Part shown: positions 18,130-49,231 of the stretch, piece by piece
Layout: each line of letters begins with the position of its first letter
How positions within the stretch are numbered: the first letter of the stretch is position 1
NCBI GenBank assembly: GCA_965263355.1
Contig: CBDHHL010000046.1
Span: forward strand, 1 to 64,000
From: Leptolyngbyaceae cyanobacterium
GTDB taxonomy: Bacteria; Cyanobacteriota; Cyanobacteriia; Phormidesmidales; Phormidesmidaceae
Direction: 5' to 3'
Length of the DNA: 64,000 nt
Notes under the pieces: model-generated
What the model was told of the DNA's origin: nothing
What the model saw: the letters and a program-made list of their open reading frames with translations, nothing else
Database searches by the model: none
Made by a program: the position numbers and the translations under genes

Positions 18130-18613
18130 CGTTTGGGTCCTCTAATTGCCTTCGTGTTTGAAAACTAAGCCTAGCGCCCGTCGGAGACATCCCAATGGCA
18201 GTGCGAATAGTTATGTCTCTTGGAATTTCCTGAACCCTTAGGTGTCGCCCAGAAAACGGTAATGGGATTTTTGCCTCTTCAGGCAATACATGATGTAATG
18301 GGACCCTTAGCTTCGCTATTTGGCGACTCTGATTGGGTCGCACAGGCGTAATGGCTAATCCGCTTGGTTGGAGGGTCGCTTCTCCTAAACCTTCCACTGA
18401 GTCCAATAAAACATCTTTGGAAGCCAGGATAGGGTCATCTCGAACCAGTTCTTCTCCCTCTTCCCACTCTGTTCGACCTTTTAAAGCTCTGGCCTTGATA
18501 TCATTAAATCGATTTACAGCAGAGCCAAAGCTCACAGCTGCGGCATAGGCTCGTAAAACTGCTGGACTCCACTCGGTCTTTTTACCGTCATTTCGACGAA
18601 CTCTTACCTTCAT
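18107..18613 (-). CDS. Hypothetical protein in the morphogenesis operon
   Basis: Overlaps both neighbours on the same strand. Confidence 0.55.
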   Translation of the reverse strand: MKVRVRRNDGKKTEWSPAVLRAYAAAVSFGSAVNRFNDIKARALKGRTEWEEGEELVRDDPILASKDVLLDSVEGLGEATLQPSGLAITPVRPNQSRQIAKLRVPLHHVLPEEAKIPLPFSGRHLRVQEIPRDITIRTAIGMSPTGARLSFQTRRQLEDPNDDPDNKR

Positions 18614-18939
18614 CTAGAACCATCCCCACCTGACAACATATAAGCCGCACCGCCGCCAACAACCCCAGCACCCATCAACTGATTAGCCCCTACCCTACCT
18701 GCTAAATGCCCATTACCCTCACGATAATTAAATCTCTTAGAAAGCTCATACCCATCTTTAGCCCCTTCTTGTATAGATGCGATAAGCCTTCCCAACTCTC
18801 GACCCCTAACAGAATGCACAATACCTCTAACAGTTCCTCGAACGCCACCACCAACACCACCCAAAACATTCAAAGCATCTCCAAGATAGGTTCTTGTGAA
18901 AGCTATCTTCTGTAATTCAGTCACAAAAGAATCTTCCAT
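18610..18939 (-). CDS. Small Gly-rich basic protein with F-x-x-E-L-x-K-I-A leader (candidate internal head protein)
   Basis: MEDSFVTELQKIA; ATG overlaps the upstream TGA; C-terminal GAGVVGGGAAY. Confidence 0.7.
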   Translation of the reverse strand: MEDSFVTELQKIAFTRTYLGDALNVLGGVGGGVRGTVRGIVHSVRGRELGRLIASIQEGAKDGYELSKRFNYREGNGHLAGRVGANQLMGAGVVGGGAAYMLSGGDGSR

Positions 18940-19430
18940 CAATAATACCCCCAAAATGAATTGATAAATAAATAACTGGAGTGAACTCCAGGACCTCCTT
19001 GAAGCGCACTCTCAATGTTATGGGCAATTAATATGCGCTGCTTCTTTTGCTCATACTCTGACTTCATTATTTGTAAAGTTGCCTGGATCATTTGAGGATT
19101 CTCCACTTGCATGTTTATCCCCCCGTCAGAATAACTAATAAAATTTCTGAGGTGCAGAAACATCAATGACTCAAGTAATGATATTGCTGCACCTCGAATA
19201 AAGACATGATTCCAGCGATTTCGAATAATACCTTCTAAAGTCCCATCGAAAACAAAAGGAGGAGTAGACGCCCAATCGCTTAAAGTATCCAAGATACTCC
19301 AAGCAATATGCCGGTCGCTATGGTCCAGACCTTTTGTTAGTCGATTCAAAGCAGCATAGTCCCTAAGAAAATACCGAACATTCTCGACCGTGTCCTGCAT
19401 CAAAGGATTATTTAGGTCAGCAACCGACAT
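18939..19430 (-). CDS. Probable head completion/adaptor protein
   Basis: VRYFLRD N-terminus, SYSDGG; helical; lies between capsid and neck genes. Confidence 0.6.
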   Translation of the reverse strand: MSVADLNNPLMQDTVENVRYFLRDYAALNRLTKGLDHSDRHIAWSILDTLSDWASTPPFVFDGTLEGIIRNRWNHVFIRGAAISLLESLMFLHLRNFISYSDGGINMQVENPQMIQATLQIMKSEYEQKKQRILIAHNIESALQGGPGVHSSYLFINSFWGYY

Positions 19431-19439
19431 CTTTATTTA

Positions 19440-19772
19440 CTACTCCTCAAAGACAAAATTTGTAGAAAAACTTAACCCAGATTTAGTTGGTGCAGGTTCC
19501 GGCGCCAAGGCATTTCGACCATGCGTTCGTACATGGGTTTTAGGAATCCGAGCAGAGATCATCCCTTTATCCTTTTGATAATCCTTCGGCAATGTTGGGC
19601 CAATATGTAACCCAGGAATTTTTGCTAAGAGAGAAGCAACACGTTCGTACGTGGCTTTGGGAATCACTACGGACCTTCCAGGGGCCACACTCTTTTCTAA
19701 GATAAGAACATATGGCTCCAAGCCCTGAATACTATCTCGAATGTTCCAAATGCGTACTTGCTCTGCCATCAC
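19440..19772 (-). CDS. Hypothetical protein
   Basis: Coupled to the upstream ORF; follows the capsid gene. Confidence 0.6.
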   Translation of the reverse strand: MMAEQVRIWNIRDSIQGLEPYVLILEKSVAPGRSVVIPKATYERVASLLAKIPGLHIGPTLPKDYQKDKGMISARIPKTHVRTHGRNALAPEPAPTKSGLSFSTNFVFEE

Positions 19773-20290
19773 ACTTCTTCTCCTTCTACGGTTTCTAAGG
19801 TAGCCAAAATGGCCGCGATAAGCGCGCTCTTGCTGGAGTATTGAGAAGGATTTGAGATATTATGATCCGTCTTGGCCATTCGATTTAGTCGAGAGCGACT
19901 AAACTTCGAAAAATAGGCTTCGTCCACAATTTGAACCTCTTCCCCTTCCTCTACTTCTTCAGCCTCTTCTTCCTCTACTTCTTCTGTGAATTCATGAGCA
20001 GGAGCTGTAGCTAATAAAGTTATGGTATCAGACAACTGACGTAACATCTCAGCCGTGTACTCCACTGCTTGACCTTCTCCAGAAGATTCAACTTTTATAA
20101 GACCACGTTCAATGCCTTCGCAAAATGCTCCTAGGTTTTCTACGATGAAATTTTCCGCGAACAGTTGAGGACGTCCTCGAAGAACACGTGTCCCATTAGG
20201 CAGCACAAACCCTGATCGATTCCCTGGGGACGTAATTCTTTCAATTCTTACAGAAGGGTCCCTACCTCGATGAGATACCTTAAATTCCAT
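19769..20290 (-). CDS. Protein with acidic linker and C-terminal helix-extension-helix (Rho-N-like) domain
   Basis: Poly-E stretch, then SRSRLNRMAK...SSKSALIAAIL. Confidence 0.55.
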   Translation of the reverse strand: MEFKVSHRGRDPSVRIERITSPGNRSGFVLPNGTRVLRGRPQLFAENFIVENLGAFCEGIERGLIKVESSGEGQAVEYTAEMLRQLSDTITLLATAPAHEFTEEVEEEEAEEVEEGEEVQIVDEAYFSKFSRSRLNRMAKTDHNISNPSQYSSKSALIAAILATLETVEGEEV

Positions 20291-20347
20291 ATCTAAAAAG
20301 ATTGTAGGCTGTAAGAGAGGGAGATGGAAGAAGAACTAAAACAGACT

Positions 20348-21472
20348 TTAATATTGCGCTACATCAGGGAAATGCAAACCGTCATCGACCTTATTGTTTT
20401 CAGCGCCTAGGTCTTCCTCAGCCGCTGGTAAAGCTGCCGCTGAACCAGTATCCAACTGGGTAGGACGTACACTTCCGCGATAAAGTTCTAATTTCCGTAC
20501 TGCGGCAATATTGATAATGCCCATACCAATGTCTTCCCAACACTGCCAGGTAATAACATTCGCAACTTTATCAATATAAAACTTCAACTTGTTCAGCATG
20601 TAAAACTTGCCGAAGAATTGCGGAGAAGTAAAACTGTAAATATTTCCAGGACGCAAAATGTCAGACTTAACTGTACGGCATACGCGCTTGCCTAGCATTT
20701 TGTTATATCGGTAACCTTCGACAACAGTCTCAGATTGAATCTTGTCGCCGTTGTCTTCTACAGTCCACTGTAGTTGGTCATCATGATCTGGTTCACAAAA
20801 TAGCAGAAGGTCACAACGAAGTCTGTTGCTACTATGTAGCTTGAACAGACTAACCAAGTCAGGGCGTTGTACAGGTCTAACTGTGAAGTCAGTTCCATCC
20901 GCAGCCAGCGCTAAAGAGCCCTTTACAACTGAAGTAGCTTGCGCATTTGCATTACCTGCACGAATATTAGTAGCATTATAGGCCACCGTCGTCGTCGTGT
21001 TTGTGGTGGTTTGTAGCGCCTGGACTGCTGCTTCAGAGTAAATAAGACCTTGTCGATCTTCAATCTCTTGAACATCATTTATCGAATTGTTTTCAATAAT
21101 TTTGGTTATAGGCGCTTCATAGGCAAGAAGCTCCTGTTCTGGTTTCTCAAATTTCTCGGAAGAGATTGTGAAGAATGGGATCTCTGCCTTTGGCGCTCTG
21201 ATCAATCTTGCGGTTGGCTCACCACGGAATGTCATGACCATTGCACGTGATTTAGGCTCAACATCAACAATCTTTACCAATGTATCGTGATTAGTAGAAC
21301 GTTGACAGTCCTTACGAGTCACTGGCTCAGGAGGAAGAATATGTCGAAAAAAAGAAGTCTCTCTAAGGCGGTCACGAATAAAGGTACCACCTACCTCAGC
21401 CATCTTCGCTTTGCCTTCTGCGCTGTCCAGCCGTTTGCTAAATAGTTCTACTGTAGCATCTACCAAGCTCAT
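20348..21472 (-). CDS. Major capsid protein (HK97 fold inferred)
   Basis: 374 aa; IRDRLRETSFFRHILPPEPV, EIPFFTISS, NDVQEIED; follows the protease, scaffold and decoration genes; GGAGG Shine-Dalgarno. Confidence 0.85.
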   Translation of the reverse strand: MSLVDATVELFSKRLDSAEGKAKMAEVGGTFIRDRLRETSFFRHILPPEPVTRKDCQRSTNHDTLVKIVDVEPKSRAMVMTFRGEPTARLIRAPKAEIPFFTISSEKFEKPEQELLAYEAPITKIIENNSINDVQEIEDRQGLIYSEAAVQALQTTTNTTTTVAYNATNIRAGNANAQATSVVKGSLALAADGTDFTVRPVQRPDLVSLFKLHSSNRLRCDLLLFCEPDHDDQLQWTVEDNGDKIQSETVVEGYRYNKMLGKRVCRTVKSDILRPGNIYSFTSPQFFGKFYMLNKLKFYIDKVANVITWQCWEDIGMGIINIAAVRKLELYRGSVRPTQLDTGSAAALPAAEEDLGAENNKVDDGLHFPDVAQY

Positions 21473-21491
21473 GTCATACCTCCAGCGCTTA

Positions 21492-21941
21492 CTAGCTAAG
21501 CGTTCTAATAAATCTCATAACTCCCTGAGCATTAGGAGCACGTGTGCAATATCCAACGATAATACCAGAACCTGTATGCTCAATTAGGCCTCGTCGTGTG
21601 AGACCACCAAAAGTCACGTCATTCACGGTTAACGGATCACCAGCTACAATTGAACCAGCTGTAATCACCTTGGTGTCTGCTTCAAAAGCACCCAAGTATA
21701 TAGTAGTGACTTTGCCAATGGCTTGAGTGTCATATCTACCTTGCTCAGTAAACACTGGGAAAGCTGGCGCGGTAGAAGGGTTCAATGTACCTCTATCTAG
21801 CTGGTAGGAAGCATTTAGCTCTAACCATTCGCCATCAACAAGAGGGTTCGCATTTGTGGGTTTAAGCTCTGCCGCTGTGCCATAATCAAAATCACGGCGC
21901 TGACTGGCCAAAAGAGCAGAGACAAGTACAAAGTTACTCAT
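21492..21941 (-). CDS. Capsid decoration/cement protein
   Basis: 149 aa directly before the capsid gene; GRYDTQAIGKVT, AGDPLTV, IVGYC. Confidence 0.65.
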   Translation of the reverse strand: MSNFVLVSALLASQRRDFDYGTAAELKPTNANPLVDGEWLELNASYQLDRGTLNPSTAPAFPVFTEQGRYDTQAIGKVTTIYLGAFEADTKVITAGSIVAGDPLTVNDVTFGGLTRRGLIEHTGSGIIVGYCTRAPNAQGVMRFIRTLS

Positions 21942-21944
21942 ATC

Positions 21945-22289
21945 TTATAATTCTCCTGTAAGAACAAAGGCCTCTAAAGCCTCCTTAGAGTTTACACCAT
22001 TAGAAGCCCTCTCCGAAGGAGAGCCTAAGACATTTACATGGCTGGCCAACTTAACTGCCTCACCCACCACACTCATGTCTTCGTGACTTAGGATGCTAGC
22101 AATTTTCTCGTCCATGGTTTGATCCGCACTCAAACCTTTTTCTTCCATCTCTTGGGCAATACTTCGAGCACGTTCTCGATGTTCGTACTCTGCTAACTTC
22201 ATCCGAAGTTCTTCATTATCCTTACCCAATGTAGCCACTGTCTCAGAGGCTACCTTAAGTAGCTGTTTAGCTCTCGCCACATCGGACAT
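21945..22289 (-). CDS. Scaffold-like coiled-coil protein, K-x-A rich
   Basis: Helical; KVAS, KLAE, KIAS, KLAS, KEAL; position before decoration and capsid genes. Confidence 0.6.
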   Translation of the reverse strand: MSDVARAKQLLKVASETVATLGKDNEELRMKLAEYEHRERARSIAQEMEEKGLSADQTMDEKIASILSHEDMSVVGEAVKLASHVNVLGSPSERASNGVNSKEALEAFVLTGEL

Positions 22290-22290
22290 A

Positions 22291-23313
22291 TCAGCCCTCC
22301 CCTGAAATTAACGCAGATATGTCCTCTGAATGCTCAGTAGCTATCTGGTTGAGAGCAGAGTTACCTGCCGCCGCTGTTTTAATTGCTCGAGTCAATTTTT
22401 GTTGGTTCTCAGAAGATTCAGAAGCCCACTTTGTAAGCCAGGTCTTCACCGAGGCCAGCTTAATGTCTGCGGAGGAAGCGTGATTTAGCTGAGACTGAAG
22501 AACAGAGTCGTTGGACTGACTCACACTCTGATCAAGATATGGAGCTACGCCTGCGTTTATCTCTTTCAACTGTCCTTTTGATGCCGCTGCTACAGATTCT
22601 GGAGAGACAAGGTGGTGACCCTTTGGATTACAAGGAGAACAGACCTCACCTAAATCATAGGGTGTCATGATTGGCTGTGTACCAGCTGTAATAATAGCGC
22701 CAGAGTCCTCTGCTGCGGACTTATTCATCGCAGCATTTAAAACACCCTTGATAGCTCCCTTAGGACCTGTCAAAGCACCCTTAACTACCGCATTTGCCAG
22801 ATTACTCTTCCTCGAGTCTTCCGCCTCTTTTATCAATTGAGAAGCGACTGGCGTTGGCACAACAGACTCTTGAGCAAGTTTAGATAGCCAGGCAATCTTA
22901 GCTTGTGCAATCTTATCAACCATTGCTTCGCTACCGCCAGGACAATCATTTTCTGTATCTGGTAGCTTGGAACCTTGAAGTGCAACGCGCATTGGAGGCT
23001 GATCAGTGGCTGACCCAGACTCTCCAGCATCCAGACTAGTACCAGATACATTAGATTCCATGACAACAGGATCTTGAGTAGCTAGCTTTTCATACAAAGC
23101 AACTAACTCAGCCACCTTCTGTCGAGAGGTTGGAGTTTCCTGACCCAAAGCCTCTGCCATGGTACCGCAAGCTGAGGCTACCTTTCTCCAATCTAGAGTT
23201 TGGTCAGACGCAACCTTTTCCTTAAGTTGTTTTGAGGACGGAGGACTCCATTGAGCGACTTTTTCCCTGCCTGCCTCAATAGCCTCCTCCAACATTTTCG
23301 TTACTACACTCAT
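22291..23313 (-). CDS. K-x-A-rich head core/scaffold-like protein
   Basis: About 15 of about 26 lysines have Ala at +2. Confidence 0.65.
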   Translation of the reverse strand: MSVVTKMLEEAIEAGREKVAQWSPPSSKQLKEKVASDQTLDWRKVASACGTMAEALGQETPTSRQKVAELVALYEKLATQDPVVMESNVSGTSLDAGESGSATDQPPMRVALQGSKLPDTENDCPGGSEAMVDKIAQAKIAWLSKLAQESVVPTPVASQLIKEAEDSRKSNLANAVVKGALTGPKGAIKGVLNAAMNKSAAEDSGAIITAGTQPIMTPYDLGEVCSPCNPKGHHLVSPESVAAASKGQLKEINAGVAPYLDQSVSQSNDSVLQSQLNHASSADIKLASVKTWLTKWASESSENQQKLTRAIKTAAAGNSALNQIATEHSEDISALISGEG

Positions 23314-23316
23314 AGT

Positions 23317-23565
23317 TCACGTCCTAATCATAGGTGGTGGCATCGACTTTGTACTTGCGGCAACACCACTTGCTGTCGCTGGAGGAGATGCATTAGTAAG
23401 AGAAAAATTCGTCCCCTTGGTCGAAGGTTTCAAAGATACCTTACCTGCCTTTGATGACACCACTGGCGAAGCCGGAGTCCTGTTATAATGAGATGCATTG
23501 GTTAAAACAGCATCAGCCTGTTTCACCAAACTGCTCAACTCTTCTACAAATGAATCCGGCAACAT
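23317..23565 (-). CDS. Small protein with F-x-x-E-L...K-Q-A leader and S/P/A/K-rich tail
   Basis: MLPDSFVEELSSLVKQAD. Confidence 0.6.
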   Translation of the reverse strand: MLPDSFVEELSSLVKQADAVLTNASHYNRTPASPVVSSKAGKVSLKPSTKGTNFSLTNASPPATASGVAASTKSMPPPMIRT

Positions 23566-23568
23566 GAC

Positions 23569-24390
23569 TTACTCCAAGCCATATTCAGCTGCGATCTCAA
23601 AAGCCCTCTGATTAATCAAATCTTCGAAAGATGCTTGTTTTTGCAGTTCTTGTTCAAGACGAGACTCAGCCAAGATATCTAAAAGAGAAGCTTCCTTCTT
23701 TTTGCCTCGCATCTTAGATACTCCATAAGCAGTACCACCAGCACCAGCACCATAAAGAGCACCTGTTTGAGCAGCGCCTCTCATAATATTCTTTCTTGCT
23801 TGAGGGAGGGTAGCATTTCGAACTGCGTCTGAAGCACCTCTCACAGCGCTACGCTGCTTCATCCCTTTTCGTAACCTCTTAGCCGTTGCTGCATCCCTAA
23901 GAGCCCCACCTGCCCGGCCAACAGCACCATATGCCTTGCCAGCACCACTACGAGCAGCACCGTATGCTTTGCTAGCAGCACCACGAGCCATTGAAGCTAC
24001 CGAAGCTTCTTTGTTCATAGCATTCAATTCATCTACGAATGCATGGGCCATGATTCTTCCAGAAGCATCTGCGTTCTCTGCAATCTTATGAAGCTCCGCA
24101 GTCTTCTCTTCATCTTCCTCGTCGTCTTCTTCTTCTTCTTCTTCTTTAGCTATTTTTTCCCATGCTGCAGCCGTTTCTATAGCCAAAACAGAATCCTCTC
24201 CAAACAATTCTGCAGCTACCTTATACAACTCAGGGATGGATAAGTTTTCCAAAGACATTTGATCGCCAGACTCTTTAAGGAGAAGGTCTTCTACAATTTG
24301 AGCCTGTGCTAGTTTTTCAACTGTAAGATCTTCCATTGTTGCTTGATCCGCGCCGTAAACCATATTCTGAAGGTAATCGTTCATAGACAT
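23569..24390 (-). CDS. K-x-A-rich head protein: acidic N-half plus a cationic GALYG module
   Basis: EKLA, KVA, EKIA, EKTA, KIA, KEAS (twice), KQAS; Gly/Ala/Arg-rich module between the two KEAS sites. Confidence 0.75.
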   Translation of the reverse strand: MSMNDYLQNMVYGADQATMEDLTVEKLAQAQIVEDLLLKESGDQMSLENLSIPELYKVAAELFGEDSVLAIETAAAWEKIAKEEEEEEDDEEDEEKTAELHKIAENADASGRIMAHAFVDELNAMNKEASVASMARGAASKAYGAARSGAGKAYGAVGRAGGALRDAATAKRLRKGMKQRSAVRGASDAVRNATLPQARKNIMRGAAQTGALYGAGAGGTAYGVSKMRGKKKEASLLDILAESRLEQELQKQASFEDLINQRAFEIAAEYGLE

Positions 24391-24467
24391 ATCAAATGCT
24401 CCACTGAGACAAATGTCTCACTACTATTTTTATTTTTTAAGCATGTCCTCAAGAGCGGGGAGCTCTC

Positions 24468-27419: not shown

Positions 27420-27426
27420 CTTACTA

Positions 27427-29016: not shown

Positions 29017-30011
29017 TATACATTACCTCTTCTTAATGGATTTTTGGCTGAGGGGTCTCCAGCCGTACGACCTTGAAGAGCCCCAGCAGTTGCCATTGAT
29101 GACGCACCTAAGCCTGTCGCTATTGTTTTAGGTGCGTTTAAAACCCCGTTCAGCAGTGTCTTGGCTACGGAAGATTTTTTCTGAAGCTCCCCATACACCT
29201 CATCCATACGTCTCAATCTATCCTCACTATCCTGCCTAGCAAATAACAACTCTGCTTGTTTTTCCAAGGCAGTAATATAACCACAGAATGATCGGACCAG
29301 AGGATCTTCAAAATTGGCCAACTTCTTAGGCTGTCTGGAAGCTTCCAGAGATTGGTCTAAATGCTCTCCTAAATCAGACAATACTGCATGCGCATATTTT
29401 GGCGCATAGGCACTTACCAAATTTACTACATCAGATACATCACAACCATTGCCTAAATACTGGCTAGTTTTAGTGTGAAAATCTGATTGAGCTTGCTTTA
29501 GTAAAATCCCATTTCCTCTTATGCCGTCATCCAAATCGCCCACTACGTGCTGTAACCCAGCTCGTAATGTTTCGAAGTTAGATAAACCATCGTCATCACA
29601 GTCCGCAGCGATCTTCTCAGGGTTGTAAGAAAATAGTTCCTCTAAAACCCTATCTTCTTCCTTGCTCTCAAAATTTGGAAGCTCACGAGAATAGTCTGAA
29701 CACGCAGCAGTTTTTACAACTGGAGTAGCTAACAAGTTCAATGTAGATAACACTGCTTTAGGTTCTGCTATCTCAAACTCGATAGTTTTTTGAGCCTCTT
29801 TTTGAAACCCGAAAAGAAAAGTGTTGCGATTTGCAGACTCCACAACTCGACGTACCTGTTCTGAAGTCATGTCCGATTGTGCTTGAGCTAATTTAACCAC
29901 AGCATCATGTAATGAAATGTCCTCGTGGAGAAACATCTTTGAAGCCGTCTTGCCCATTTCTTCAAGGTCTATTGAATTACTACCACCAAACATCCCCAAA
30001 TATTCTTGCAT
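29016..30011 (-). CDS. K-x-A-rich head-module protein
   Basis: Start MQEYLG with GGAG Shine-Dalgarno; KTAS, KLAQ, KEAQ, KTAA, KIAA, KQAQ, KLAN, KQAE, KKSS. Confidence 0.75.
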   Translation of the reverse strand: MQEYLGMFGGSNSIDLEEMGKTASKMFLHEDISLHDAVVKLAQAQSDMTSEQVRRVVESANRNTFLFGFQKEAQKTIEFEIAEPKAVLSTLNLLATPVVKTAACSDYSRELPNFESKEEDRVLEELFSYNPEKIAADCDDDGLSNFETLRAGLQHVVGDLDDGIRGNGILLKQAQSDFHTKTSQYLGNGCDVSDVVNLVSAYAPKYAHAVLSDLGEHLDQSLEASRQPKKLANFEDPLVRSFCGYITALEKQAELLFARQDSEDRLRRMDEVYGELQKKSSVAKTLLNGVLNAPKTIATGLGASSMATAGALQGRTAGDPSAKNPLRRGNV

Positions 30012-30052
30012 TAGGACTCCTGACTCAGAAAAATAACACACAGGAAAACAGC

Positions 30053-33884: not shown

Positions 33885-33892
33885 AACTCCCC

Positions 33893-37089: not shown

Positions 37090-37098
37090 GAAACCCCC

Positions 37099-41200: not shown

Positions 41201-44200
41201 GCCTCTGGACCTGTGGCACCATCTATCTTTTGAGACCCGGCAATAACATTTTCATAAGCCTTTTGAGTTAGCCCTAACAAGGAACGTATAGGCTTCTCAA
41301 ATGTCGGGTTAGGGAGACGTTCTGTTAATTTCATGTGTCCCCAACGCTCACCTAACCCATGAGTTATAGAAGTCGTTCCCGTAATTTTCGGATCGAACAA
41401 GCCTCCAGGCTCAGGCAAGATCTCATTCGCGCTTGAATGCTTCAAAGGTATATCTGGCTTGGTGATTTCGCCATTAGACATTGATAGGACTTGCTCATCT
41501 GTAAGTGGCCCTAAGTGTAATTTGTTGCCCTCTTTATTTACGTCAACTCCCATAGTTTTGAGGTACCCAACAAATTTACGATAAGCGAAAGGAGTTTCTG
41601 GGGCTGGAGGAACTTCTCCATTTTGTAAGGCTGCCCAGTAATCATCATTTCTTTCCCCCTTTATAGCCTGAAATTCGCGTATGTTCTCTCGAGCACCGTG
41701 AGCCAACATGGCGTAAAGTCCCCCAGAATCCATTGTGACGCCAGAAGCTTTTCCACCTTGTTTGGGTTGCATGTTTGAATCGTAACGACCTACATTTCTA
41801 GCAGACACACCCTTTTCAGCCATGTGCTCGAGCTTTAGAATGTATTGTGGACCAGTCAAAGTTTCATAAACTTCTCCCGATCTTGGGTCAGTTATCTTTT
41901 CCTTATCTGAAATACCTACCTTCTTTAAGTCCTTCAAAACCTTTTCTGTATAATCTTTTATGTCTGCATTAAAGTTATCAACAACGTATGGCTTTCCAGT
42001 TTTTTGGGCTATCTTTCCCGCTGCTGTTTCCAAACACTGACCTAAATTAATTCTCGTACTAATTCCCGCAGGGTTTAGAAGTACATCAACAGGTCGACCA
42101 TTCTGTTTATGAGGCATCTCATTATCTGCAACAATATGAGTTACAATACCCTTATTTCCATGCCGACCCACTAACTTGTCACCAATAACAACAGGAGACT
42201 GCGACTTTACATGTACCGTGATGTCTTTACCGCTTTTAAAGACTTCCACAACTTCGCCTTCATAATCTGCTTCCCAAATAACTGGCTGAGCCTTTACAGG
42301 ACGAAATGCTGATTTACTAATCTTCTGAAGCTCTTGTAACTCTCTTGATGCTTCTGTCTTTTTGAGCACTGCAATCAACAAATCCCCGGGCTTTACACGT
42401 GTACCCTTTTTCACAACCCCAAGTTCATCTAAATTATTTGATTGTCGGTTTGTCCACTGGCCTGCAGTTTCTGCCATGAATCTGTTTTTATCTAAAATCG
42501 TAGACTCACCAGCTTGTACAGAGTGTCGTGTCATATGCTCTGAAGTGAGTTTTTTAGCAGCAGTTTCGGAGATGACAATTCCGTCCTCAAAGTTGTATCC
42601 CTGATAAGGCATGTAGCTGACTTCTAGATTTTTTCCTAAGGCCAATTTTCCATTACGTGTAAAATTTGTATCTGCTACTAGCTGGCCCTTCTTTACAGTA
42701 TCGCCCACCTTAACTAAGGGCTGACTATTTATGGCAGACTTATTATCATTCAAAGGGAAATCTTTGTAGAGTTCTACTTCATGTTTTTTTCTATTGGTAC
42801 CTTGAATAATAATACGGTCTTCTTTTACATCTATAACTTGACCATCCACAGGAGCAGTATGGGAGTTAAGCTTTCCTAATACCTCTTCGAAAGTAAAATT
42901 ACCGTCCGTCTTGTTTTGGACAAGAGGCTCTTCTCGGTCAACCAAAGCCACCGACTGCTCTAACTGTTTAGCCGCCACTGAAGTTCGGTTACCTTGATTG
43001 TTTTGCAAAAACGGGATGGAGTTAGCAGAAAAATCAAACATACCCTTTGGACTACTAATTACATATTGAACCTTATTGGCTGATACAGCACGTACCTCAT
43101 TAGAGGCATCCATAACCTTAACTTCCGTATTCCTAGGAACGTAATCCTTGCCTACCTTCTTGTACTGATCTGGGAATGCAATAATGGCCTTATTTGCTTG
43201 TTCTGAATTTAGCCACTCATATTGTTTGGTCTTTAGGTTGAAAACACGGGTCTTCAACTCTTTACCATGCTTAGCAGCGCCTAGTGCTATTTGAAGGATA
43301 CCACCAATTCTTGAAGATTCTGGTGTTTGAACAGGATCTAAAAAGCCCATCTGAGTTGGATTTATAGACTGAGCTTCAGGAGTAAATTGATTCTCATTCA
43401 AAATACCTCCTTCACCGAAGATAGTTGTTCTACGATGACCGCTAATAAACCCCATCGGATTTAGCTGCTTGGGGCGGTCAGACACAGAACTAGAAGAGAA
43501 AAAACTATCTATAGCCTTACCAAATGTATCTATCGTAACAACCTTAGAAACCGAGTCGGCATTATCTATTTTTCGCTTTAGCTTTCTTTGAATTTCTGAA
43601 CGTCCTCGAGTACTGATTCGCTCTTCTAAGTGATCTTCTGCCCCAAACACATCTTTGAATTGTAATTGGTCTCTCTCATCAGCTTCTTCCACACCACGTA
43701 TAACATTTAAAAGCTTCTTACTGCCAAGGACTAGAGCAGAACCATCTACTTGTTTTAATTCCTTGCCTAGAGTCAACTTAGTTGAATCTGGTCTCAACTC
43801 CGTTTTGTCAAAAGCCGCACGTATATTTGTTTGTGCTTCTTTCAAAGAGTCGGAAGATTGGCCTGTAAGTCGTTGACTAAGATGCAAAAGATTTGACGTC
43901 TCTACCCGCCCGGTAACTCGGTTGGCATTAAGGATTTCCTTTCCCCAAGTTCTCTCTAAATCTTCATCATCCACGCCCAACGTTTTTAAGATCGAGTAAG
44001 CAGGATAGCTTTTAGTGCCATACTGAATTCGGAATTTCTTTGTGTCGGAATCAAAGTCCATGCTGAACCCTAACCCCTTTGACAGGTTCCACTCCTGAGA
44101 AATACCACCCGCTTGAGTTTCTTTTGTGTAAACACCAGATTTTAAGCGGAGTTGATTGTGAATTTGCCGCTCTTCACCTCTTACAATGTATGAAAATCTT

Positions 44201-44493
44201 CGAGTTGGTTTAGGCAAAGTCCCCAAAGAAACGCGTCCTGAATCAATAACTTTGCCTGTTGCTTTATCTACCAGCTCAACCTCTCCGTAGATTGGAGCTC
44301 CCCACGTTTTGCCTTTCAGCTTTACATCCTTCTGTTTTGCTACGGAATCCACATGAGTGTTGTCATCCTTCACAGATACACTCTTTAGCCTCAGGATCCG
44401 TTTTTTACCTTCAACAGGGAAATGCGTGGAGATAGATTTTATTGTCGCTTTGCGCAACGCCTCAAAAGTCTCTTGTGGATCTAAACCGGCCAT
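38293..44493 (-). CDS. Single-polypeptide DNA-directed RNA polymerase (beta-beta' fusion)
   Basis: Beta motifs GYNFEDG, GDKLVGRHGNKG, LNPAGISTRINLGQ, YILKLEH; beta' motifs GKRQD, RDPVLH, NADFDGD (40357-40377), GARKG, GEPLTQMAMNAFHTGG. Confidence 0.97.
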   Translation of the reverse strand: MAGLDPQETFEALRKATIKSISTHFPVEGKKRILRLKSVSVKDDNTHVDSVAKQKDVKLKGKTWGAPIYGEVELVDKATGKVIDSGRVSLGTLPKPTRRFSYIVRGEERQIHNQLRLKSGVYTKETQAGGISQEWNLSKGLGFSMDFDSDTKKFRIQYGTKSYPAYSILKTLGVDDEDLERTWGKEILNANRVTGRVETSNLLHLSQRLTGQSSDSLKEAQTNIRAAFDKTELRPDSTKLTLGKELKQVDGSALVLGSKKLLNVIRGVEEADERDQLQFKDVFGAEDHLEERISTRGRSEIQRKLKRKIDNADSVSKVVTIDTFGKAIDSFFSSSSVSDRPKQLNPMGFISGHRRTTIFGEGGILNENQFTPEAQSINPTQMGFLDPVQTPESSRIGGILQIALGAAKHGKELKTRVFNLKTKQYEWLNSEQANKAIIAFPDQYKKVGKDYVPRNTEVKVMDASNEVRAVSANKVQYVISSPKGMFDFSANSIPFLQNNQGNRTSVAAKQLEQSVALVDREEPLVQNKTDGNFTFEEVLGKLNSHTAPVDGQVIDVKEDRIIIQGTNRKKHEVELYKDFPLNDNKSAINSQPLVKVGDTVKKGQLVADTNFTRNGKLALGKNLEVSYMPYQGYNFEDGIVISETAAKKLTSEHMTRHSVQAGESTILDKNRFMAETAGQWTNRQSNNLDELGVVKKGTRVKPGDLLIAVLKKTEASRELQELQKISKSAFRPVKAQPVIWEADYEGEVVEVFKSGKDITVHVKSQSPVVIGDKLVGRHGNKGIVTHIVADNEMPHKQNGRPVDVLLNPAGISTRINLGQCLETAAGKIAQKTGKPYVVDNFNADIKDYTEKVLKDLKKVGISDKEKITDPRSGEVYETLTGPQYILKLEHMAEKGVSARNVGRYDSNMQPKQGGKASGVTMDSGGLYAMLAHGARENIREFQAIKGERNDDYWAALQNGEVPPAPETPFAYRKFVGYLKTMGVDVNKEGNKLHLGPLTDEQVLSMSNGEITKPDIPLKHSSANEILPEPGGLFDPKITGTTSITHGLGERWGHMKLTERLPNPTFEKPIRSLLGLTQKAYENVIAGSQKIDGATGPEAIVSALDKIDVSSELQKLEASVQGLKGPRLNDASRKIKYLRVLNERKLNARQAYTLQHIPVLPPKMRPVTVLDSGDIRTDDVTEMYRQLGTINTQLKDLQDLGVPKEAEEMTSLGASLYDGLKGLSLTGMEYKQRHRKGILELIGGKSGMTQPKNAFFQSKVIGKRQDMSMRGVIVPEPSLGMDEVALPESAAMAAYKPFVMRRMRQSGYAPGQAVQAIKDKEPIVYNMLEAEMKSRPVLLKRDPVLHKYGVQAFKPVLTKGSAIKIHPLATGGFNADFDGDKMAAFVPISNKAVDEAWKMLPSKNLFSSSHGGLMFRPTHESLLGLHQLTRTDGKKTGLVFQTGAAAAKAVKQGKIGITDVVTIRDATKEVPNFLQDRIKKASENKAKHTTVGRMLIEQSLPKEYKHLFKGQQLDKRNLTKLLSEIGQKADAETFRDVADTLKDMGNVHATGYGFGLEDFKAMKGPRDNILRQVKEREREIHKSVRNKAKRNEALAELYNKARIVLDKATKPKFDKSNNKMYQWVKAQARGNWDQFKQMTITPLAVVDSKERIVPISIEKSYSEGLDTASYWASMYGARKGTIGRVKGTQLPGAQVKEMMQTSMDHLVSEIDCGTKEGNMFSPTDNQAIDRVLAVDVSLKGKGVLKAGEVVTPQMLTRMQNNGVKAFTARTPLKCQAHDGVCSRCYGLNEMGQFPEKGDNLGVKAVHAIGEPLTQMAMNAFHTGGVAGAKGSDVASQFDRVVQLVKFPQNLPGSAVLSKQSGNIDKIEKDEVVGGWNIYVSGTKHYLSARQSPVVSKGQKVKKGDALSGGPKNPLEMLPLTGISAVRNYVTDELTNLGGYSRTPILRKNAEVFVRTLTNLAEIEDPKDHPTFLKGDKVAASEVNRYNSSVTKGEQLLARPILKGTNVLPRELRSDWLARMQATHLKDTILDGAAEGWVSDLHGTHPIPAAAFGLEFGQSKNPDEAWKY

Positions 44494-44561
44494 TAATTCC
44501 TCTCACAATAACACAGTCAACTGACTGCAAGATTATCATAATTGTTGGGATAAGAAGACTA

Positions 44562-44773: not shown

Positions 44774-44779
44774 CGGGTA

Positions 44780-44829
44780 AAAGAAAAAAAGAAGGAGAAA
44801 AGGAAGGGAGGATGTGTTCCTCCCTTCCT
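44780..44829 (-). terminator. Intrinsic terminator after the portal gene
   Basis: Perfect 12-bp stem AGGAAGGGAGGA/TCCTCCCTTCCT with 5-nt loop (44801-44829), followed on the minus strand by a U-rich run; 3 nt after the portal stop. Confidence 0.8.
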
Positions 44830-44832
44830 CCC

Positions 44833-46698
44833 TTAGGTAGTAGACTCAGGCCCTCTTCTCGGTGCCTTTTGTTGTGGGTCTGGACTTTGGGCAGAGCTTT
44901 GATGCGCCCCTTGTCGCTCTGCTAAAGCTGGTGCAACAAGCTCCCAAAACATAGGATTCTCTTGTTGGATTTGAGCGATATATTGTGCTCGAGTAGCCTC
45001 ATCGAGCTGGTCTAACTGAGCTGCAACACTTTGAACTAATTTTTCTATCGGCACACCTCCAGGAGTTACTGGAGACTCTGCGCCAGGAACACCAGATTGA
45101 GGCATTTCTGGGCTCTCTTGCCCCTCCTGCGGCTGTTGTTCCATTGGCGTGCCTGGCGCCAGTTCCGACATAACTTTCTGAGCTCGAGCCTGATATTTTA
45201 TGCCTGTTAACTGCGCTTCACCTTGAATCTGTGATTGAGCCACAGCCTGACTTAGTTGACTCTCTGCCAGCAACTCCTGTTCAACCGCAATCTGTTTTCT
45301 TTCTGCGTCAGCATCCCATTCTGTATCTTCCAGCAAAGTCTTATCTGAAATCTTCCCTGCTTGGTTAAGCTGTAAGTTGAATGCACTTCTTTGAAGGTCA
45401 TCCGCCATTTTAAACCTGCGAAAATATGCAGGCGCTGGCACCCAACTCATGAAAGCACCAACTCGTTCCATGATCCAATTGACCAGATTGATATGGTCCG
45501 ACTTATAATCCAAGAAATGATTTTCCAACATTCTCAAGGAAACACTCGAACCAGAGTAACTTAAGCCTCCGAATATAAACTCATTGGGAACACCCATACC
45601 AGCCACAATATGTTCAGCCCAAACTCGGTATTCTTGGCTCAGCATCAAAGCACGACCTTGTGCCCCTAATGTTTGTTGACCTATTGGAATAGGTAAAATA
45701 GGAATATAGTTGTTATCCAGCCGCCAACGTTGAATCTCTATCTCTATCTGCTTCTTCCAAGCACTCAAGTTAGTTGTCGGGTAAGGATCGCTAGAACCAG
45801 AAGCAACCTGCGGAAAAAGGACTCGAAGAGGTACAATATGCTCTACAGCTATAGCCTCCTGAGCTTTTCTCAATATCTGCAAATAGAACACGTCTTTCAA
45901 CACAGGAAGAATCATCGAAAGCCCCCAACCCTTATCCTTCTGAGCGATTGTAGGCCTTTTCATATGAAAAATATTATTCGGGTTAAAAATAACATCCTTA
46001 TTCTGTTTCATTGCCTCAATGAAACTCGTAGGAGTTTTTTCAATAATATCCTTCTTCCCCATTTGAATATCATTTTTCAAGGTAGTAGGTATGCTATAAT
46101 AATAAGTGTTCTTACCTACCAATTCATTATGTCGAATTGTTATTCGTTCTGGGCTCCAACGAATCAGATGTATATCTCTCCAACTTTTTACATACGTATC
46201 CTGGGCTTTAAACTCTCCATAATGACCGCACTTCTTACAGGAACCTTGATAACCAAAATTACGGAATATGTAGCTTGTCTTTTCTATAGGCATGGAATGC
46301 CCACAATTTGAGCACACTAAAAACTTTTTGAATGGGTAATTCACAGAGATAAAGCAATTACCGTAACAATTATAATCTAATCCTGCCTCCACTTGAAATT
46401 TTTTAAACTTCAATTGCAACTTAAAAAAGTCATCCCACTTACTTCTAAGATTTTCGTCACTGGAGTCAATAATTAAGTCAGTGACTGGGTACTCAGACAT
46501 CTTGTAAACAACAGAGTTTATCAAGGGATTTGATATAAAATAGTACTCACACCACTTCAATAACGTCTTAAACGACGTAGGTAAGTACATATGACTTATA
46601 TCAAAAAATGGAGAAGGATACCGAATTGTCCCCACATGATCGGAAAGCAAAGATCGACTTGCAGGGCCAAAACTTCCAGGAACCGGAGTCACACTCAT
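44833..46698 (-). CDS. Portal protein with zinc-ribbon insertion and Q/P-rich tail
   Basis: NPLINSVV, YGNCFI, IFHMKRP...GWGLSMILPVLK, GVPNEFIFG; CSNC...CKKC insert. Confidence 0.85.
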   Translation of the reverse strand: MSVTPVPGSFGPASRSLLSDHVGTIRYPSPFFDISHMYLPTSFKTLLKWCEYYFISNPLINSVVYKMSEYPVTDLIIDSSDENLRSKWDDFFKLQLKFKKFQVEAGLDYNCYGNCFISVNYPFKKFLVCSNCGHSMPIEKTSYIFRNFGYQGSCKKCGHYGEFKAQDTYVKSWRDIHLIRWSPERITIRHNELVGKNTYYYSIPTTLKNDIQMGKKDIIEKTPTSFIEAMKQNKDVIFNPNNIFHMKRPTIAQKDKGWGLSMILPVLKDVFYLQILRKAQEAIAVEHIVPLRVLFPQVASGSSDPYPTTNLSAWKKQIEIEIQRWRLDNNYIPILPIPIGQQTLGAQGRALMLSQEYRVWAEHIVAGMGVPNEFIFGGLSYSGSSVSLRMLENHFLDYKSDHINLVNWIMERVGAFMSWVPAPAYFRRFKMADDLQRSAFNLQLNQAGKISDKTLLEDTEWDADAERKQIAVEQELLAESQLSQAVAQSQIQGEAQLTGIKYQARAQKVMSELAPGTPMEQQPQEGQESPEMPQSGVPGAESPVTPGGVPIEKLVQSVAAQLDQLDEATRAQYIAQIQQENPMFWELVAPALAERQGAHQSSAQSPDPQQKAPRRGPESTT

Positions 46699-46702
46699 TC
46701 TG

Positions 46703-47335
46703 TTATTTCCCCCTCACCCGTCTAGACTTCCGCCCTGGTTTGCGGCCAGCCAAACGATCTATTCGCTTACCTACGTATTTACCTACTTCGGCCGCACCGA
46801 TAGTAGCTGGAGCGGAAGCAAGTAACCCAGTCCCTCCAGTCAAAACGCCGCCTGCCGCAAAACCTAAGTTTTCTCCTATGGCTTCACCAAGTCCTTGGTC
46901 AGATTGCCCTCTAGCTGCTGCTGCGATAGAAGGTACAGCCATAGCTGTACCCACAACCATTTGACTCTTTGCGCCTACTGGAGCATATTTCAATGCTTTG
47001 CTAGTACCTGTCCAACCAGACCGAGAAGCTTGTTCTGCAAAACCTCGATATCCCGTTGCGCCAGTATCACCCAATAAATGCTCACCCTGTCCGAAAATAT
47101 CCCTAAAAACACGAGAAACAGGCCCACTGCCCTTATTTGCTATGGCTTTCTCATCTATGGTTGGAGCAAAAGCATCCCAACCTTCTTTTAAGCCCTTACG
47201 ACCTGACTTCGTTCGGCGGCCTATCGTTAAAAGGTCCTTTACCACTCCCCATTCTCGAGGGTTCCATGTCATGGGATTTAACTTCTTCTTAGCCATAGCA
47301 ATCTTTTGAAGCTCTAAAGTGAATGCCTCATTCAT
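46703..47335 (-). CDS. Basic Gly-rich protein with F-x-x-E-L-x-K-I-A leader and glycine-zipper-like C-terminus
   Basis: MNEAFTLELQKIA; GLGEAIGENLGFAAGGVLTGGTGLL...GKYVGKRID. Confidence 0.75.
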   Translation of the reverse strand: MNEAFTLELQKIAMAKKKLNPMTWNPREWGVVKDLLTIGRRTKSGRKGLKEGWDAFAPTIDEKAIANKGSGPVSRVFRDIFGQGEHLLGDTGATGYRGFAEQASRSGWTGTSKALKYAPVGAKSQMVVGTAMAVPSIAAAARGQSDQGLGEAIGENLGFAAGGVLTGGTGLLASAPATIGAAEVGKYVGKRIDRLAGRKPGRKSRRVRGK

Positions 47336-48135
47336 GACAACGCCTCCAATTGTTCAGCCATTTGCGTTGTTCTCATACCTGCATACCGATAAGCCACAAC
47401 TAACTTGGCTGCTTGAACAGCAACAAAGTCTGTATCTGAAAAGGACAACTCTGCTTGGTCCTTCATCAAATAAAATCTATTTTTCACAGGATCGCTATTT
47501 ACCCTCTTCACAACCAAGCGAACCCAATCCTCTTGCAACAACGGACAATTGGTCGGAGTCCCCTCCTCATTGAAAGGAAACTCAGTGTCGTAAGAAACAA
47601 TACACTTCATACTTTCGCTATCTAAATCTACGACATGATCACAAGTAGGACATCGAAAATATGGTCGCTCAATATATGGCAAGGCATCTTGCAAGGGTTC
47701 CGGAAGCCAAGTAATACCTTGATCTAATGCACAAGCAGCAACATACTTATGAATGTCCTCGCTCCAAGTCTCTCCTCCTCGGATCTCATTTATAATATTG
47801 ACGCCATTCCACAATTGAGCCACAGAGCACTTTTGGACTGAGGCCGGTGTAGGCATAACATTATTCAATGCCAATATTATTTTCTCAAAAATTTCCCACT
47901 CATACCAAACAGACGTTGCTTGCAATATTGCCCGAAAAGCTTGTATCTTTTGCCAATTGAGCGCAGCTATAGAGTTAGCGCGAAAGACATCTTTGATACT
48001 GGATCTCAAGACATCCGACTCCCAATCCAGCATTTCTGGACCTAATTCTCGTATCAGTAAAGTCCCGAGAACAGTTGGGTGTGCATCATGCCAACCAAAA
48101 AATAGATTTAACTTGGGTATTTTAGATGCCGTCAT
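47332..48135 (-). CDS. Hypothetical protein in the portal operon
   Basis: Start set at MTASK, overlapping the upstream stop; CPTC motif. Confidence 0.65.
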   Translation of the reverse strand: MTASKIPKLNLFFGWHDAHPTVLGTLLIRELGPEMLDWESDVLRSSIKDVFRANSIAALNWQKIQAFRAILQATSVWYEWEIFEKIILALNNVMPTPASVQKCSVAQLWNGVNIINEIRGGETWSEDIHKYVAACALDQGITWLPEPLQDALPYIERPYFRCPTCDHVVDLDSESMKCIVSYDTEFPFNEEGTPTNCPLLQEDWVRLVVKRVNSDPVKNRFYLMKDQAELSFSDTDFVAVQAAKLVVAYRYAGMRTTQMAEQLEALS

Positions 48136-49231
48136 GCCAAAGACTCTGCCCTTCTGTTTTCCCAGAAAACCGCATATCCTCTCCCAGGCGAGCAACTATT
48201 CGTTTGAGCCTAGTAGGTAATTTTCGAAAAGTGCCAACAGGGTCTTTGTTGAAGTCACTCATAATATTATCGGAAAATAACTCATCGAAATCTCCAGCAT
48301 ATTCAGTTGACAACAGCAGCAAGGCTTCTTCTGTTAGCCTATCTGGACCACTCTCCCAAATAACATTAGCTCGTTTAGCAATCCCATAAGTACTTTGAAA
48401 CGGGTCAGGAATACCTTCTCCCCAAGAATAAGAAAGTCCATTATCTTCATCAAACTTAGCCAATAGATATGCATATTTTTCCGGAGAGAGTTCACCACGC
48501 ATTCCGGCTAATTTGGCTAGTACGGGCTGTGCTCGATGCTCATGCGGCAGAGCACTCATCCGGTCTACTAAAGCGTTATCCAATTGCACATCTGGACCGT
48601 AATCATTTGAAGCAGCTTCTTTCACCTGTTCCGCAGTTTCTACGCCCAACTCTGTCGCACGCTGTTGAATGTTAACCGCAAAACTTCTACGCACCCCTAC
48701 AGGCATATGAGCCTGTTTCTCCACCCAATACTCATTCGCTTGCTGAACTTGTGCAATCGTTGTTAGCGGAAAATAATTCTTGCCATTATATTGAACCCCC
48801 CAGTGCTCCTCAGCCTCTTTCACAAACACAGGCGCTGGTTTCTGTCCTGACACATCTACCACGTTTGAAGAAAGGGAACCAAATCCTGCCACTTTAGTTA
48901 ACGTGGCAGAAGGTAAAGACCCATACGACATTACAGCATTTGTTATGAAGTGCGCTGCCACCTTTTGTGCCGATTCAGGTAACTTATCCCCATGCCTTTG
49001 AAAATATAACTCTGAAATTTTTGTTACACCATTATTATAAATTGGATATCTAGGATGAGCTACACCTTCATCCATAACAACCAAAGCAAAATCCGACGTA
49101 GCAAGTTCATCTCTCCCAATGAACTCTGCATGCTTTATAACGTCCGGAACCCTACTTAAAGACGGGTAGACCTCTTTTAGCGTCTCTCCACCATCATCAT
49201 AAATGTCTAAAACAACCCCTGAAAATTTCAT
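48122..49231 (-). CDS. K-x-A-rich protein, first gene of the minus-strand block
   Basis: KHAE, KVAA, KVAG, KEAE, KQAH, KEAA, KLAG, KRAN; TAGAAT lies 10 nt before the ATG at 49231. Confidence 0.7.
   Translation of the reverse strand: MKFSGVVLDIYDDGGETLKEVYPSLSRVPDVIKHAEFIGRDELATSDFALVVMDEGVAHPRYPIYNNGVTKISELYFQRHGDKLPESAQKVAAHFITNAVMSYGSLPSATLTKVAGFGSLSSNVVDVSGQKPAPVFVKEAEEHWGVQYNGKNYFPLTTIAQVQQANEYWVEKQAHMPVGVRRSFAVNIQQRATELGVETAEQVKEAASNDYGPDVQLDNALVDRMSALPHEHRAQPVLAKLAGMRGELSPEKYAYLLAKFDEDNGLSYSWGEGIPDPFQSTYGIAKRANVIWESGPDRLTEEALLLLSTEYAGDFDELFSDNIMSDFNKDPVGTFRKLPTRLKRIVARLGEDMRFSGKTEGQSLWHDGI

Follow-up and report, generated by a model that had tools for sequence, protein, structure and literature searches.

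The window analysed here, 64,000 bp from an assembly of a Leptolyngbyaceae cyanobacterium (GenBank GCA_965263355.1, contig CBDHHL010000046.1, positions 1 to 64,000), is by its gene content a block of a large tailed phage. From ~2.5 kb to 49.2 kb the minus strand carries structural and nucleotide-metabolism genes; from 49.3 kb onward the plus strand carries a replication module (helicases, a DnaB-like helicase, primase, DNA polymerase, a UvsX-like recombinase, resolvase and a Cas4-like exonuclease). The head module, within the minus-strand block, is ordered as large terminase (30377..32110), a polyprotein headed by a predicted prohead protease (24468..27419), a group of small proteins rich in the tripeptide K-x-A (lysine, any residue, alanine) and the major capsid protein (20348..21472), an order kept in five relatives and in phage G. 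Our subject is this tripeptide, its distribution over the proteins of the window and of related phages, and its relationship to the protease.

We translated the 63 non-nested open reading frames of the window and counted K-x-A in each protein against 2000 shuffles that preserved its composition (for three reading frames the shuffle table took the spans 24468..27488, 29016..30122 and 48122..49243, with start sites placed at 27419, 30011 and 49231). Seven proteins were enriched, with empirical p between 0.0005 and 0.0145 (individual counts in Table 1), and none of the remaining 56 reached p<0.08. Pooled, the seven contain 70 K-x-A against an expected 20.5 (z 10.9), and the other 56 are at expectation (85 versus 88.4). 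An unbiased scan of every residue pair at gaps of 0 to 5 over all 63 proteins ranked K-x-A second (155 versus 108.9, z 4.4), behind C-xx-C; E-x-A and other residue pairs showed no enrichment. Other spacings of the same two residues in the seven proteins gave K-A 11, K-xx-A 22, K-xxx-A 28, K-x4-A 16 and K-x5-A 17, each against ~20.4. The K-x-A excess is real, spacing-specific and limited to a set of head-module proteins.

Two residues ahead of the site lysine L, V and M are favoured. The residue that follows the alanine is Ser at 18 of the 70 sites (2.9x) and Gly at 4 of the 70 (0.8x), which bears out one half of a sequence-only reading of this DNA, in which the motif was said to be followed by Ser or Gly, and removes the other. 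The lysine counts of that reading were exact (15 of 26 lysines in 22291..23313 and 5 of 8 in 21945..22289 lie in K-x-A), and its tallies for four further proteins hold on recounting, with 8 sites in 23569..24390, 9 in 29016..30011 and 10 each in 35164..37089 and 48122..49231. It was also right that the terminase has no excess (2 versus 1.96). The same had been said of sheath and tube, a contrast that stays without named proteins, none being identifiable in 11334..18613 by Pfam (E<=0.05) or PHROGs; and its placement of the portal near the protease was wrong, the portal being encoded at 44833..46698, not adjoining it.

Such an excess could be an artefact, arising from composition, from helical periodicity or from internal duplication in Ala/Lys-rich low-complexity proteins, and this reading has something to draw on, as Ala is rather abundant in the enriched proteins (up to 18.7%, in 23569..24390) and one neighbour (27427..29016) has internal repeats. 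It is nevertheless a very improbable explanation. The shuffles preserve composition, and gap 1 alone is enriched, so that helix periodicity does not account for the excess; Tandem Repeats Finder detected no tandem DNA repeats in 27000..29500; in orthologues at 25-45% identity the site count is maintained, as are many of the positions; and all 150 protease-domain homologues described below show the excess. The enrichment stands after correction for both composition and spacing.

As a control, the same blind scan was applied to T4 gp67, gp68, gp21 and gp22, where its top two pairs were I-x-E (15 versus 5.9) and L-x-E (16 versus 7.0), matching what we take to be the gp21 cleavage code; K-x-A was flat in all nine T4 proteins scanned. 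Prohead-protease motifs thus leave a statistical trace of this kind, and the K-x-A trace in the window is several times stronger than the I/L-x-E trace in T4.

The first ~260 residues of 24468..27419 are predicted to have the fold of T4 gp21 and herpesvirus assemblin, in agreement with the sequence-only reading, which had named this gene as the protease. A domain model built from 40 sequences (predicted local distance difference test, pLDDT, 82.4) was compared by VIA-align wide search and matched T4 gp21 (5jbl_A) at Z 10.0, with a root-mean-square deviation of 2.8 and 130 of 165 residues aligned, and the varicella-zoster protease (1vzv_A) at Z 9.9; the next unrelated match stood at Z 6.7. The weak top rows of a Foldseek search were herpesvirus proteases and gp21. 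H126 and H127 (27039..27044) and S183 of DVSMG (26871..26873), which is the VSMG serine singled out in the earlier reading, are invariant in 38 sequences and by this conservation are the predicted catalytic residues. Among the window proteins scanned with Pfam and PHROGs there was no other peptidase family.

Inteins favour active-site motifs, and in 8 of 12 intein-bearing homologues inspected the intein lies directly after DVSMG. Intein-bearing homologues of the protease are P0005, P0016, P0024, P0027-P0029, P0032, P0041, P0047, P0048, P0053, P0056, P0062, P0070, P0080, P0086 and P0087; some of these inteins contain LAGLIDADG endonuclease domains, most follow DVSMG, a few follow a cysteine of a zinc cluster, and P0032 apparently has two. 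The cluster, a C-x2-C...C-x-H insertion (C193, C196, C207, H209; protease residues 193-209), comes directly after the serine motif; its three cysteines show no variation in 38 sequences, and H209 hardly any in 40.

Downstream of the protease, the polyprotein contains an InPase domain (Pfam, 4.6e-37), a GNAT domain (Acetyltransf_1, 4.7e-06) and a helical C-terminal module; its start at 27419 agrees with homologues that align from residue 1. The full-length model (pLDDT 68.3) consists of folded blocks with linkers of pLDDT<50 between them (251-277, 413-457, 635-663, 689-711, 888-900), and the site lysine falls in linkers at 7 of the 13 K-x-A sites, linkers comprising 305 of the 983 residues (31%). 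Among 37 homologues, the site at residue 253 is kept exactly in 24, 411 in 29, 653 in 21, 697 in 25 and 893 in 26. For four of these five best-conserved sites the lysine is in a low-confidence linker, and the fifth (411) is at a linker edge. K253 and A255 lie where the protease domain ends; they hardly vary among 40 sequences, and homologues show them in an 'AKVMAKLA' context. Of 45 long homologues scanned, 36 have InPase, and over those 36 proteins the density of K-x-A is 0.83 per 100 residues in the InPase core and 2.67 in its 60-residue flanks. On the modelled domain boundaries, the picture is that of a precursor that would be cut into modules.

A search with the first 285 residues of 24468..27419 against a library of 1.84 billion proteins (E<=0.001) yielded 3094 cluster representatives of the protease domain, most with long C-terminal extensions and reaching up to 1718 residues. 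Cultured homologues are phage G gp19, Arash gp222, Vibrio phage D69 VPHD69_0270 and the gp103-type giants of cluster C mycobacteriophages (I3 gp103); two further homologues, Rhodococcus phage E3 gp77 and one from a Gordonia phage, bear annotations as prohead or capsid maturation proteases. The gene for phage G gp19 lies between the portal and capsid genes, and the available text of PMC12484599 names gp19 a head maturation protease.

The K-x-A excess recurs in relatives. Syntenic proteins of the relative L002, whose protease is ~55% identical, contain 13 versus 4.1, 22 versus 10.7, 8 versus 4.4, 3 versus 0.5, 16 versus 7.6 and 5 versus 1.3 sites, and K-x-A is the top pair in the head regions of both Arash (55 versus 29.8, 13 genes) and phage G (55 versus 29.9, 26 genes). 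Four D69 proteins reach z 3-4.4, and I3 gp103 has 18 sites versus 8.1. In the best 150 protease-domain homologues the observed count exceeds expectation in 150 of 150 (1552 versus 692), and in their 144 C-terminal extensions of 100 residues or more, which have varied domains, K-x-A again leads all pairs (1026 versus 441.8), though the shared ancestry of homologues makes such family-wide counts non-independent and inflated.

When whole loci are ranked over ~1500-1600 pair combinations, K-x-A is placed 3, 2, 1, 1 and 20 in five protease-bearing loci, and 17, 108, 677, 298, 884, 1385, 427, 1127, 942, 400 and 108 in eleven loci that have only the InPase; the excess is missing from 10 of these 11. 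The motif accompanies the protease domain in phages with Bacillus/Lysinibacillus, Salmonella, Vibrio and Mycobacterium hosts; it does not accompany InPase alone. One InPase-only control, L003 (38 versus 24.1, rank 17), was matched via polyprotein residues 246-404, a stretch starting before the InPase, and may hold a diverged member of the protease family.

The sites are also conserved in homologues. Over six orthologue sets, K and A were both kept in 76 of 178 comparisons of a site with an orthologue, as against 124 of 407 other lysines (30%) and 245 of 714 other alanines (34%), separate rates from which only ~10% joint retention is expected; where positions shift, the number of sites is kept. 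In the extensions of the protease homologues the motif is strict, with K-x-S at 1.01x, K-x-G at 0.72x and R-x-A at 0.83x. With the lysine numbered P3 and the alanine P1, Pro is rare both at x (0.08x) and at P1' (0.22x), P1' is enriched in Ser (3.1x), and M/F/L are enriched two residues ahead of the lysine. A single Arg-for-Lys case was seen in L021_1574_2833, the orthologue of 29016..30011 in relative L021, which has R-R-A at the conserved N-terminal site, where the other orthologues have K-x-A.

These patterns bear on whether K-x-A might be a cleavage signal that is cut at another bond, for example after the lysine, or by another enzyme of host or phage. The scissile bond has been placed only by analogy, and Lys at P1 is a common protease preference; even so, this alternative appears quite unlikely. 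The strict alanine (with K-x-S and K-x-G at or below expectation) fits a small S1 pocket better than it fits a P2' preference, and a three-residue P3-x-P1 format is the rule in T4-type enzymes as far as the available sources describe them. No further peptidase family is present among the scanned window proteins, and a host enzyme is unlikely because the motif tracks the phage protease across diverse hosts and is missing from 10 of 11 InPase-only loci.

Site-dense proteins outside the polyprotein include the predicted scaffold/core protein 22291..23313, whose syntenic orthologues (490-642 residues) have 11-16 sites and keep the N-terminal one in L002, L021 and L023, and its small neighbour 21945..22289, which keeps 4 of its 5 sites in each of three orthologues (35-42% identity). 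In 23569..24390, 4 of 8 sites are kept in each of three orthologues, and orthologues of 29016..30011 have 7-14 sites with 1-4 of the 9 positions kept. Two distal proteins are predicted to be head-internal substrates: four orthologues of 35164..37089 (32-43% identity) have 11-13 sites versus 3.3-4.2, with sites 15 and 555 kept in position, and three orthologues of 48122..49231 have 11-12 sites versus 2.6-3.7, with 4 of 10 positions kept in all three and a fifth in two. For both, tblastn against phages gave no match; in the ESM Atlas the former had no usable match, and the latter matched only unnamed viral clusters at 0.78-0.82.

Single sites near the N-terminus form a second group. The major capsid protein, for which a search of PDB sequences gave no match, has a K23-M-A25 site that is the predicted end of a propeptide; the corresponding N-terminal site is KLA at 23-25 in L002, KEA at 27-29 in Arash and D69, and KLA at 45-47 in I3 and E3, and in I3 the capsid protein aligns with phage G gp27 (6wkk) from its own residue 36 onward. 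Orthologues of the small protein 23317..23565 in L002, L021 and L023 have K-x-A at residues 15-20, and those of 18610..18954 (L021_15989 and L023_15750) keep the early K-x-A. The products of 23317..23565, 46703..47335 and 18610..18939 have leaders of a common form, M..(S/A)F(V/T).EL...K-x-A, which from sequence may be a shared capsid-targeting peptide; the strict pattern occurs in these 3 window proteins and in 1 further case in the relatives.

Such leaders, ending in K-x-A and in this like the T4 capsid-targeting sequence (PMC9026906, in its available text), could also be read as a sign that K-x-A is a docking or targeting motif, bound and not cut, whether by the capsid interior, a scaffold lattice or an exosite of the protease. 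Many copies per protein would suit multivalent binding, and the evidence at hand comes from sequence and models. We consider docking unlikely, however, as the motif stands at module boundaries of the polyprotein and at the end of the protease domain, as processing sites look; the scarcity of Pro at x and P1' and the preference for Ser at P1' match the subsite patterns of proteases such as SPN3US gp245; and in T4 the blind scan recovers the true cleavage code. Moreover, the T4 targeting leader presumably itself ends in the cleavage motif, so the docking and cleavage readings are not mutually exclusive.

Taken together, we consider it likely that K-x-A is the cutting signal of the phage's own prohead protease, with Lys at P3, Ala at P1 and often Ser at P1'. 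The sequence-only proposal that K-x-A is the recognition site of 24468..27419, a specificity without Glu, is supported by the conservation of the sites, the fold of the domain and the co-occurrence of motif and protease domain. The cut is placed after the alanine because of the P3-P2-P1 format described in the available texts on SPN3US and phiKZ, the Ser/Pro pattern around the sites and the cut of assemblin between Ala and Ser.

This conclusion must be tempered by several observations. The position of the scissile bond is itself an inference by analogy. The protease domain has no Pfam peptidase match at E<=0.01, matches only PHROGs of unknown function (phrog_2774, phrog_16951), gave no Foldseek match in the PDB at E<=0.001 (the best, 0.0095, being herpesvirus proteases) and in a profile search of its alignment against PDB sequences returned chance rows only (E 0.75 and 2.2). 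Among the relatives, the pooled D69 proteins leave K-x-A outside the six top pairs, acidic repeats leading the list; in I3 the excess is in gp103 alone; the Rhodococcus phage E3 protease has 7 sites versus 4.5, with no pooled signal; one protease-bearing locus (L024) ranks only 20th; and the family-wide totals carry the dependence noted above. Five of the 13 polyprotein sites lie in confidently folded parts of the model (357, 376, 848 and 879, and 461 in a helix), and the linker excess, 7 of 13 sites versus 31% of the chain, is modest. The 56 remaining window proteins, non-substrates in this scheme, do not avoid the motif (85 versus 88.4). N-terminal K-x-A occurs in 13 of the 63 window proteins versus 10.4 expected, which is not significant alone; the case for the N-terminal sites is made instead by the 11 of these 13 proteins that sit in the structural block, with the site within the first 36 residues, and by the conservation of these sites in orthologues. 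Finally, the literature searched (the phage G structure paper being outside its coverage) contains no reported cleavage for this phage or family.

A possible course of events follows from K-x-A as a cutting signal. The protease would be synthesised as the 983-residue polyprotein, whose C-terminal modules would bring it into the procapsid. On activation it would free itself by a cut at K253-L-A255, and it would cleave the conserved linker sites on either side of the InPase, acetyltransferase and C-terminal modules. The capsid protein would lose a propeptide of ~25 residues at K23-M-A25, several small proteins would lose their short N-terminal leaders, and the site-dense scaffold/core proteins (22291..23313, 21945..22289 and others) would be fragmented into small pieces able to leave the head before DNA packaging. 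That InPase and GNAT might be released as cargo delivered to the host is a weaker proposition, made by analogy with the polyvalent-protein concept as set out in the available text of PMC5512222.

Generalized, and only as a tentative scheme that we regard as rather doubtful, a large and mostly uncultured clade (3094 protease clusters, with phage G and cluster C mycobacteriophages) might use (hydrophobic)-x-K-x-A leaders to address proteins to the procapsid, where the N-terminal assemblin-fold protease would cut every exposed K-x-A, dissolving the scaffold, maturing the shell and freeing packaged pyrophosphatase-like and acetyltransferase enzymes for injection with the DNA. K-x-A leaders would then be a portable tag for loading foreign proteins into such capsids. 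If K-x-A is the cutting signal, the rule would hold for phage lineages in the thousands, several of which are in culture; it would make it possible to recognise scaffold, core and internal head proteins from sequence alone in 'dark' jumbo-phage genomes; and it would predict mature termini for cryo-electron microscopy model building. No paper describing a K-x-A motif was found in the literature searched.

The features discussed are collected in Table 1, and some of their neighbours carry features of their own. The basic repeat protein (27427..29016) has three copies of a ~80-150 residue module that occurs singly in 23569..24390 (BLASTP E 5e-09 to 9e-06), each copy closing with a hydrophobic, Gly/Ala-rich stretch (GALYGG..A.G.AAY), after which comes a Lys-rich run. 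The portal has ~40 extra residues with two C-x2-C pairs (CSNCGH...CKKCGH) at a gap in phage G gp14, possibly a zinc ribbon to judge from the sequence. In the fused RNA polymerase (38293..44493), beta-like Rpb2 domains occupy residues ~340-913 and beta'-like Rpb1 domains ~1150-1967; Arash has these halves as two virion proteins, gp206 and gp216. We considered whether the fusion is split at K-x-A and dropped the idea, as neither the beta/beta' junction nor the N-terminal region contains a site. A set of nucleotide- and DNA-metabolism genes stands amid the structural genes (2972..10829 and 33306..33884): helicase, thymidylate synthase (6665..7522, plus strand), dNMP kinase, DNA methyltransferase, a ParB-like protein and dCTP deaminase. 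Close relatives are uncultured viral contigs of 177-202 kb, two of which have terminal repeats and are rated complete; megablast of 20000..32000 against phage records gave no match, and a search for tRNA genes found none.

Table 1. Features of the window, with K-x-A counts and shuffle expectations where given; residue numbers refer to the encoded protein.
Feature	Coordinates	Strand	Length (aa)	K-x-A observed	K-x-A expected	Details
Small protein with N-terminal leader	18610..18954	-				leader MEDSFVTELQKIA, counted from internal ATG at 18939
Major capsid protein	20348..21472	-	374			phrog_2522, major head protein
K23-M-A25, predicted end of capsid propeptide	21398..21406	-				conserved site
Small head-module protein	21945..22289	-	114	5	0.96	5 of 8 Lys in K-x-A
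Predicted scaffold/core protein	22291..23313	-	340	15	3.64	z 6.8; 15 of 26 Lys in K-x-A; first site at residue 18
Small protein with N-terminal leader	23317..23565	-	82	1		site at residue 15, end of leader MLPDSFVEELSSLVKQA
Head-module protein	23569..24390	-	273	8	3.54	acidic stretch and Gly/Ala-rich basic module
Protease polyprotein	24468..27419	-	983	13	5.75	sites at residues 253, 357, 376, 411, 444, 461, 548, 653, 692, 697, 848, 879, 893
Polyprotein modules						protease ~32-250, InPase 285-404, GNAT 506-575, helical C-terminal module ~712-973
Prohead protease domain, predicted T4 gp21/herpesvirus assemblin fold	26634..27419	-				first ~260 residues of 24468..27419
K253-L-A255 then S256, predicted self-release site	26655..26663	-				end of protease domain, linker 251-277
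Basic repeat protein	27427..29016	-	529	5	6.3	not enriched; K25-Q-A then S near N-terminus
Head-module protein	29016..30011	-	331	9	2.01	between terminase and basic repeat protein
Large terminase	30377..32110	-		2	1.96	phrog_675, 5.4e-68; negative control
Predicted head-internal substrate	35164..37089	-	641	10	3.03	
Fused beta/beta' multisubunit-type RNA polymerase	38293..44493	-	2066	11	14.0	Pfam Rpb2_6, 6e-62, and Rpb1 domains
Portal	44833..46698	-	621	1	2.5	BLASTP to phage G gp14 'portal', E 7e-22; not enriched
Protein with N-terminal leader	46703..47335	-	210			leader ending K11-I-A (MNEAFTLELQKIA)
Predicted head-internal substrate	48122..49231	-	369	10	1.71	upstream of portal

Among known systems, T4 is one of the closest. 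Its gp21 is the best structural match (Z 10.0), a single protease acts there on many head proteins (gp22, gp67, gp68, gp23, gp24 and internal proteins), and a tripeptide code is over-represented in its core proteins and is found by the same scan. N-terminal leaders are removed from T4 internal proteins, according to the available text of PMC9026906. The two systems differ in that I/L-x-E is enriched in T4 and K-x-A, without Glu, in the window, and in that gp21 is a stand-alone protein of 212 residues whereas the protease here heads a 983-residue polyprotein and has no Pfam or PHROG link to gp21.

The large phages phiKZ and SPN3US resemble this one in having a virion-type multisubunit RNA polymerase gene and many head proteins that are processed there and predicted to be processed here. 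As described in the text available to us, SPN3US gp245 cleaves behind A-X-E (P3-P2-P1), with Ser preferred at P1' (PMC10052503), a preference paralleled by the enrichment of Ser after the alanine in the window; phiKZ gp175 cuts after S/A-X-E, with multiple redundant sites in propeptides and a motif highly reminiscent of that of T4 (PMC9026906). In both the P1 residue is Glu, whereas Lys at P3 and Ala at P1 would be read here; their cleavages were mapped by mass spectrometry, whereas our sites are known from sequence; and the RNA polymerase in the window has no excess of the motif.

The herpesvirus assemblin precursor (pPR/UL26-type) shares with the polyprotein an N-terminal protease in a longer polypeptide, the varicella-zoster protease being the second-best fold match (Z 9.9). 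Assemblin, as we understand it, cuts between Ala and Ser after (V/L/I)-x-A and would thereby share Ala at P1 and Ser at P1' with K-x-A, differing in its hydrophobic P3 where Lys stands here. The herpesvirus protease is produced as part of a longer assembly polypeptide, from which it is freed by its own cuts at R and M sites (available text of PMC8537868 and PMC11565193). Here the fused part holds enzyme domains (InPase, GNAT) and not scaffold only, many separate proteins with many sites are involved, and the host is bacterial.

Phage G gp19, Arash gp222, D69 VPHD69_0270 and I3 gp103 are sequence homologues (29-35% identity) in the same gene position, with a K-x-A excess in the protein or its neighbours; their fusions are shorter or longer (300 to 1408 residues), and in the literature searched no cleavage motif is described for any of the four. 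The virion proteome of Arash (PMC10585845) lists 116 proteins, metabolic enzymes included, with sequence coverage as its only measure, and has no word on cleavage. The polyvalent proteins of Iyer et al. 2017 (PMC5512222) are multidomain, head-packaged proteins, InPase-containing ones among them, that a peptidase of their own is predicted to cut into units, and the union of protease, InPase and GNAT in one polypeptide recalls them; in the available text of that paper, which names no cut-site motif, the assemblin-like peptidase is C-terminal, as opposed to its N-terminal position here.

The T4-type phage prohead proteases with mapped cut sites, in the literature searched, all cut after glutamate. 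The system in the window is most likely T4-type, multi-substrate head processing with a different code and a polyprotein-borne protease. Should this be true, Lys-x-Ala would be a second specificity class for the T4-type prohead protease fold, one nearer to the Ala-Ser rule of herpesvirus assemblin, and the protease-InPase polyprotein, a head protease fused to presumptive cargo, bears on how proteins are loaded into capsids.

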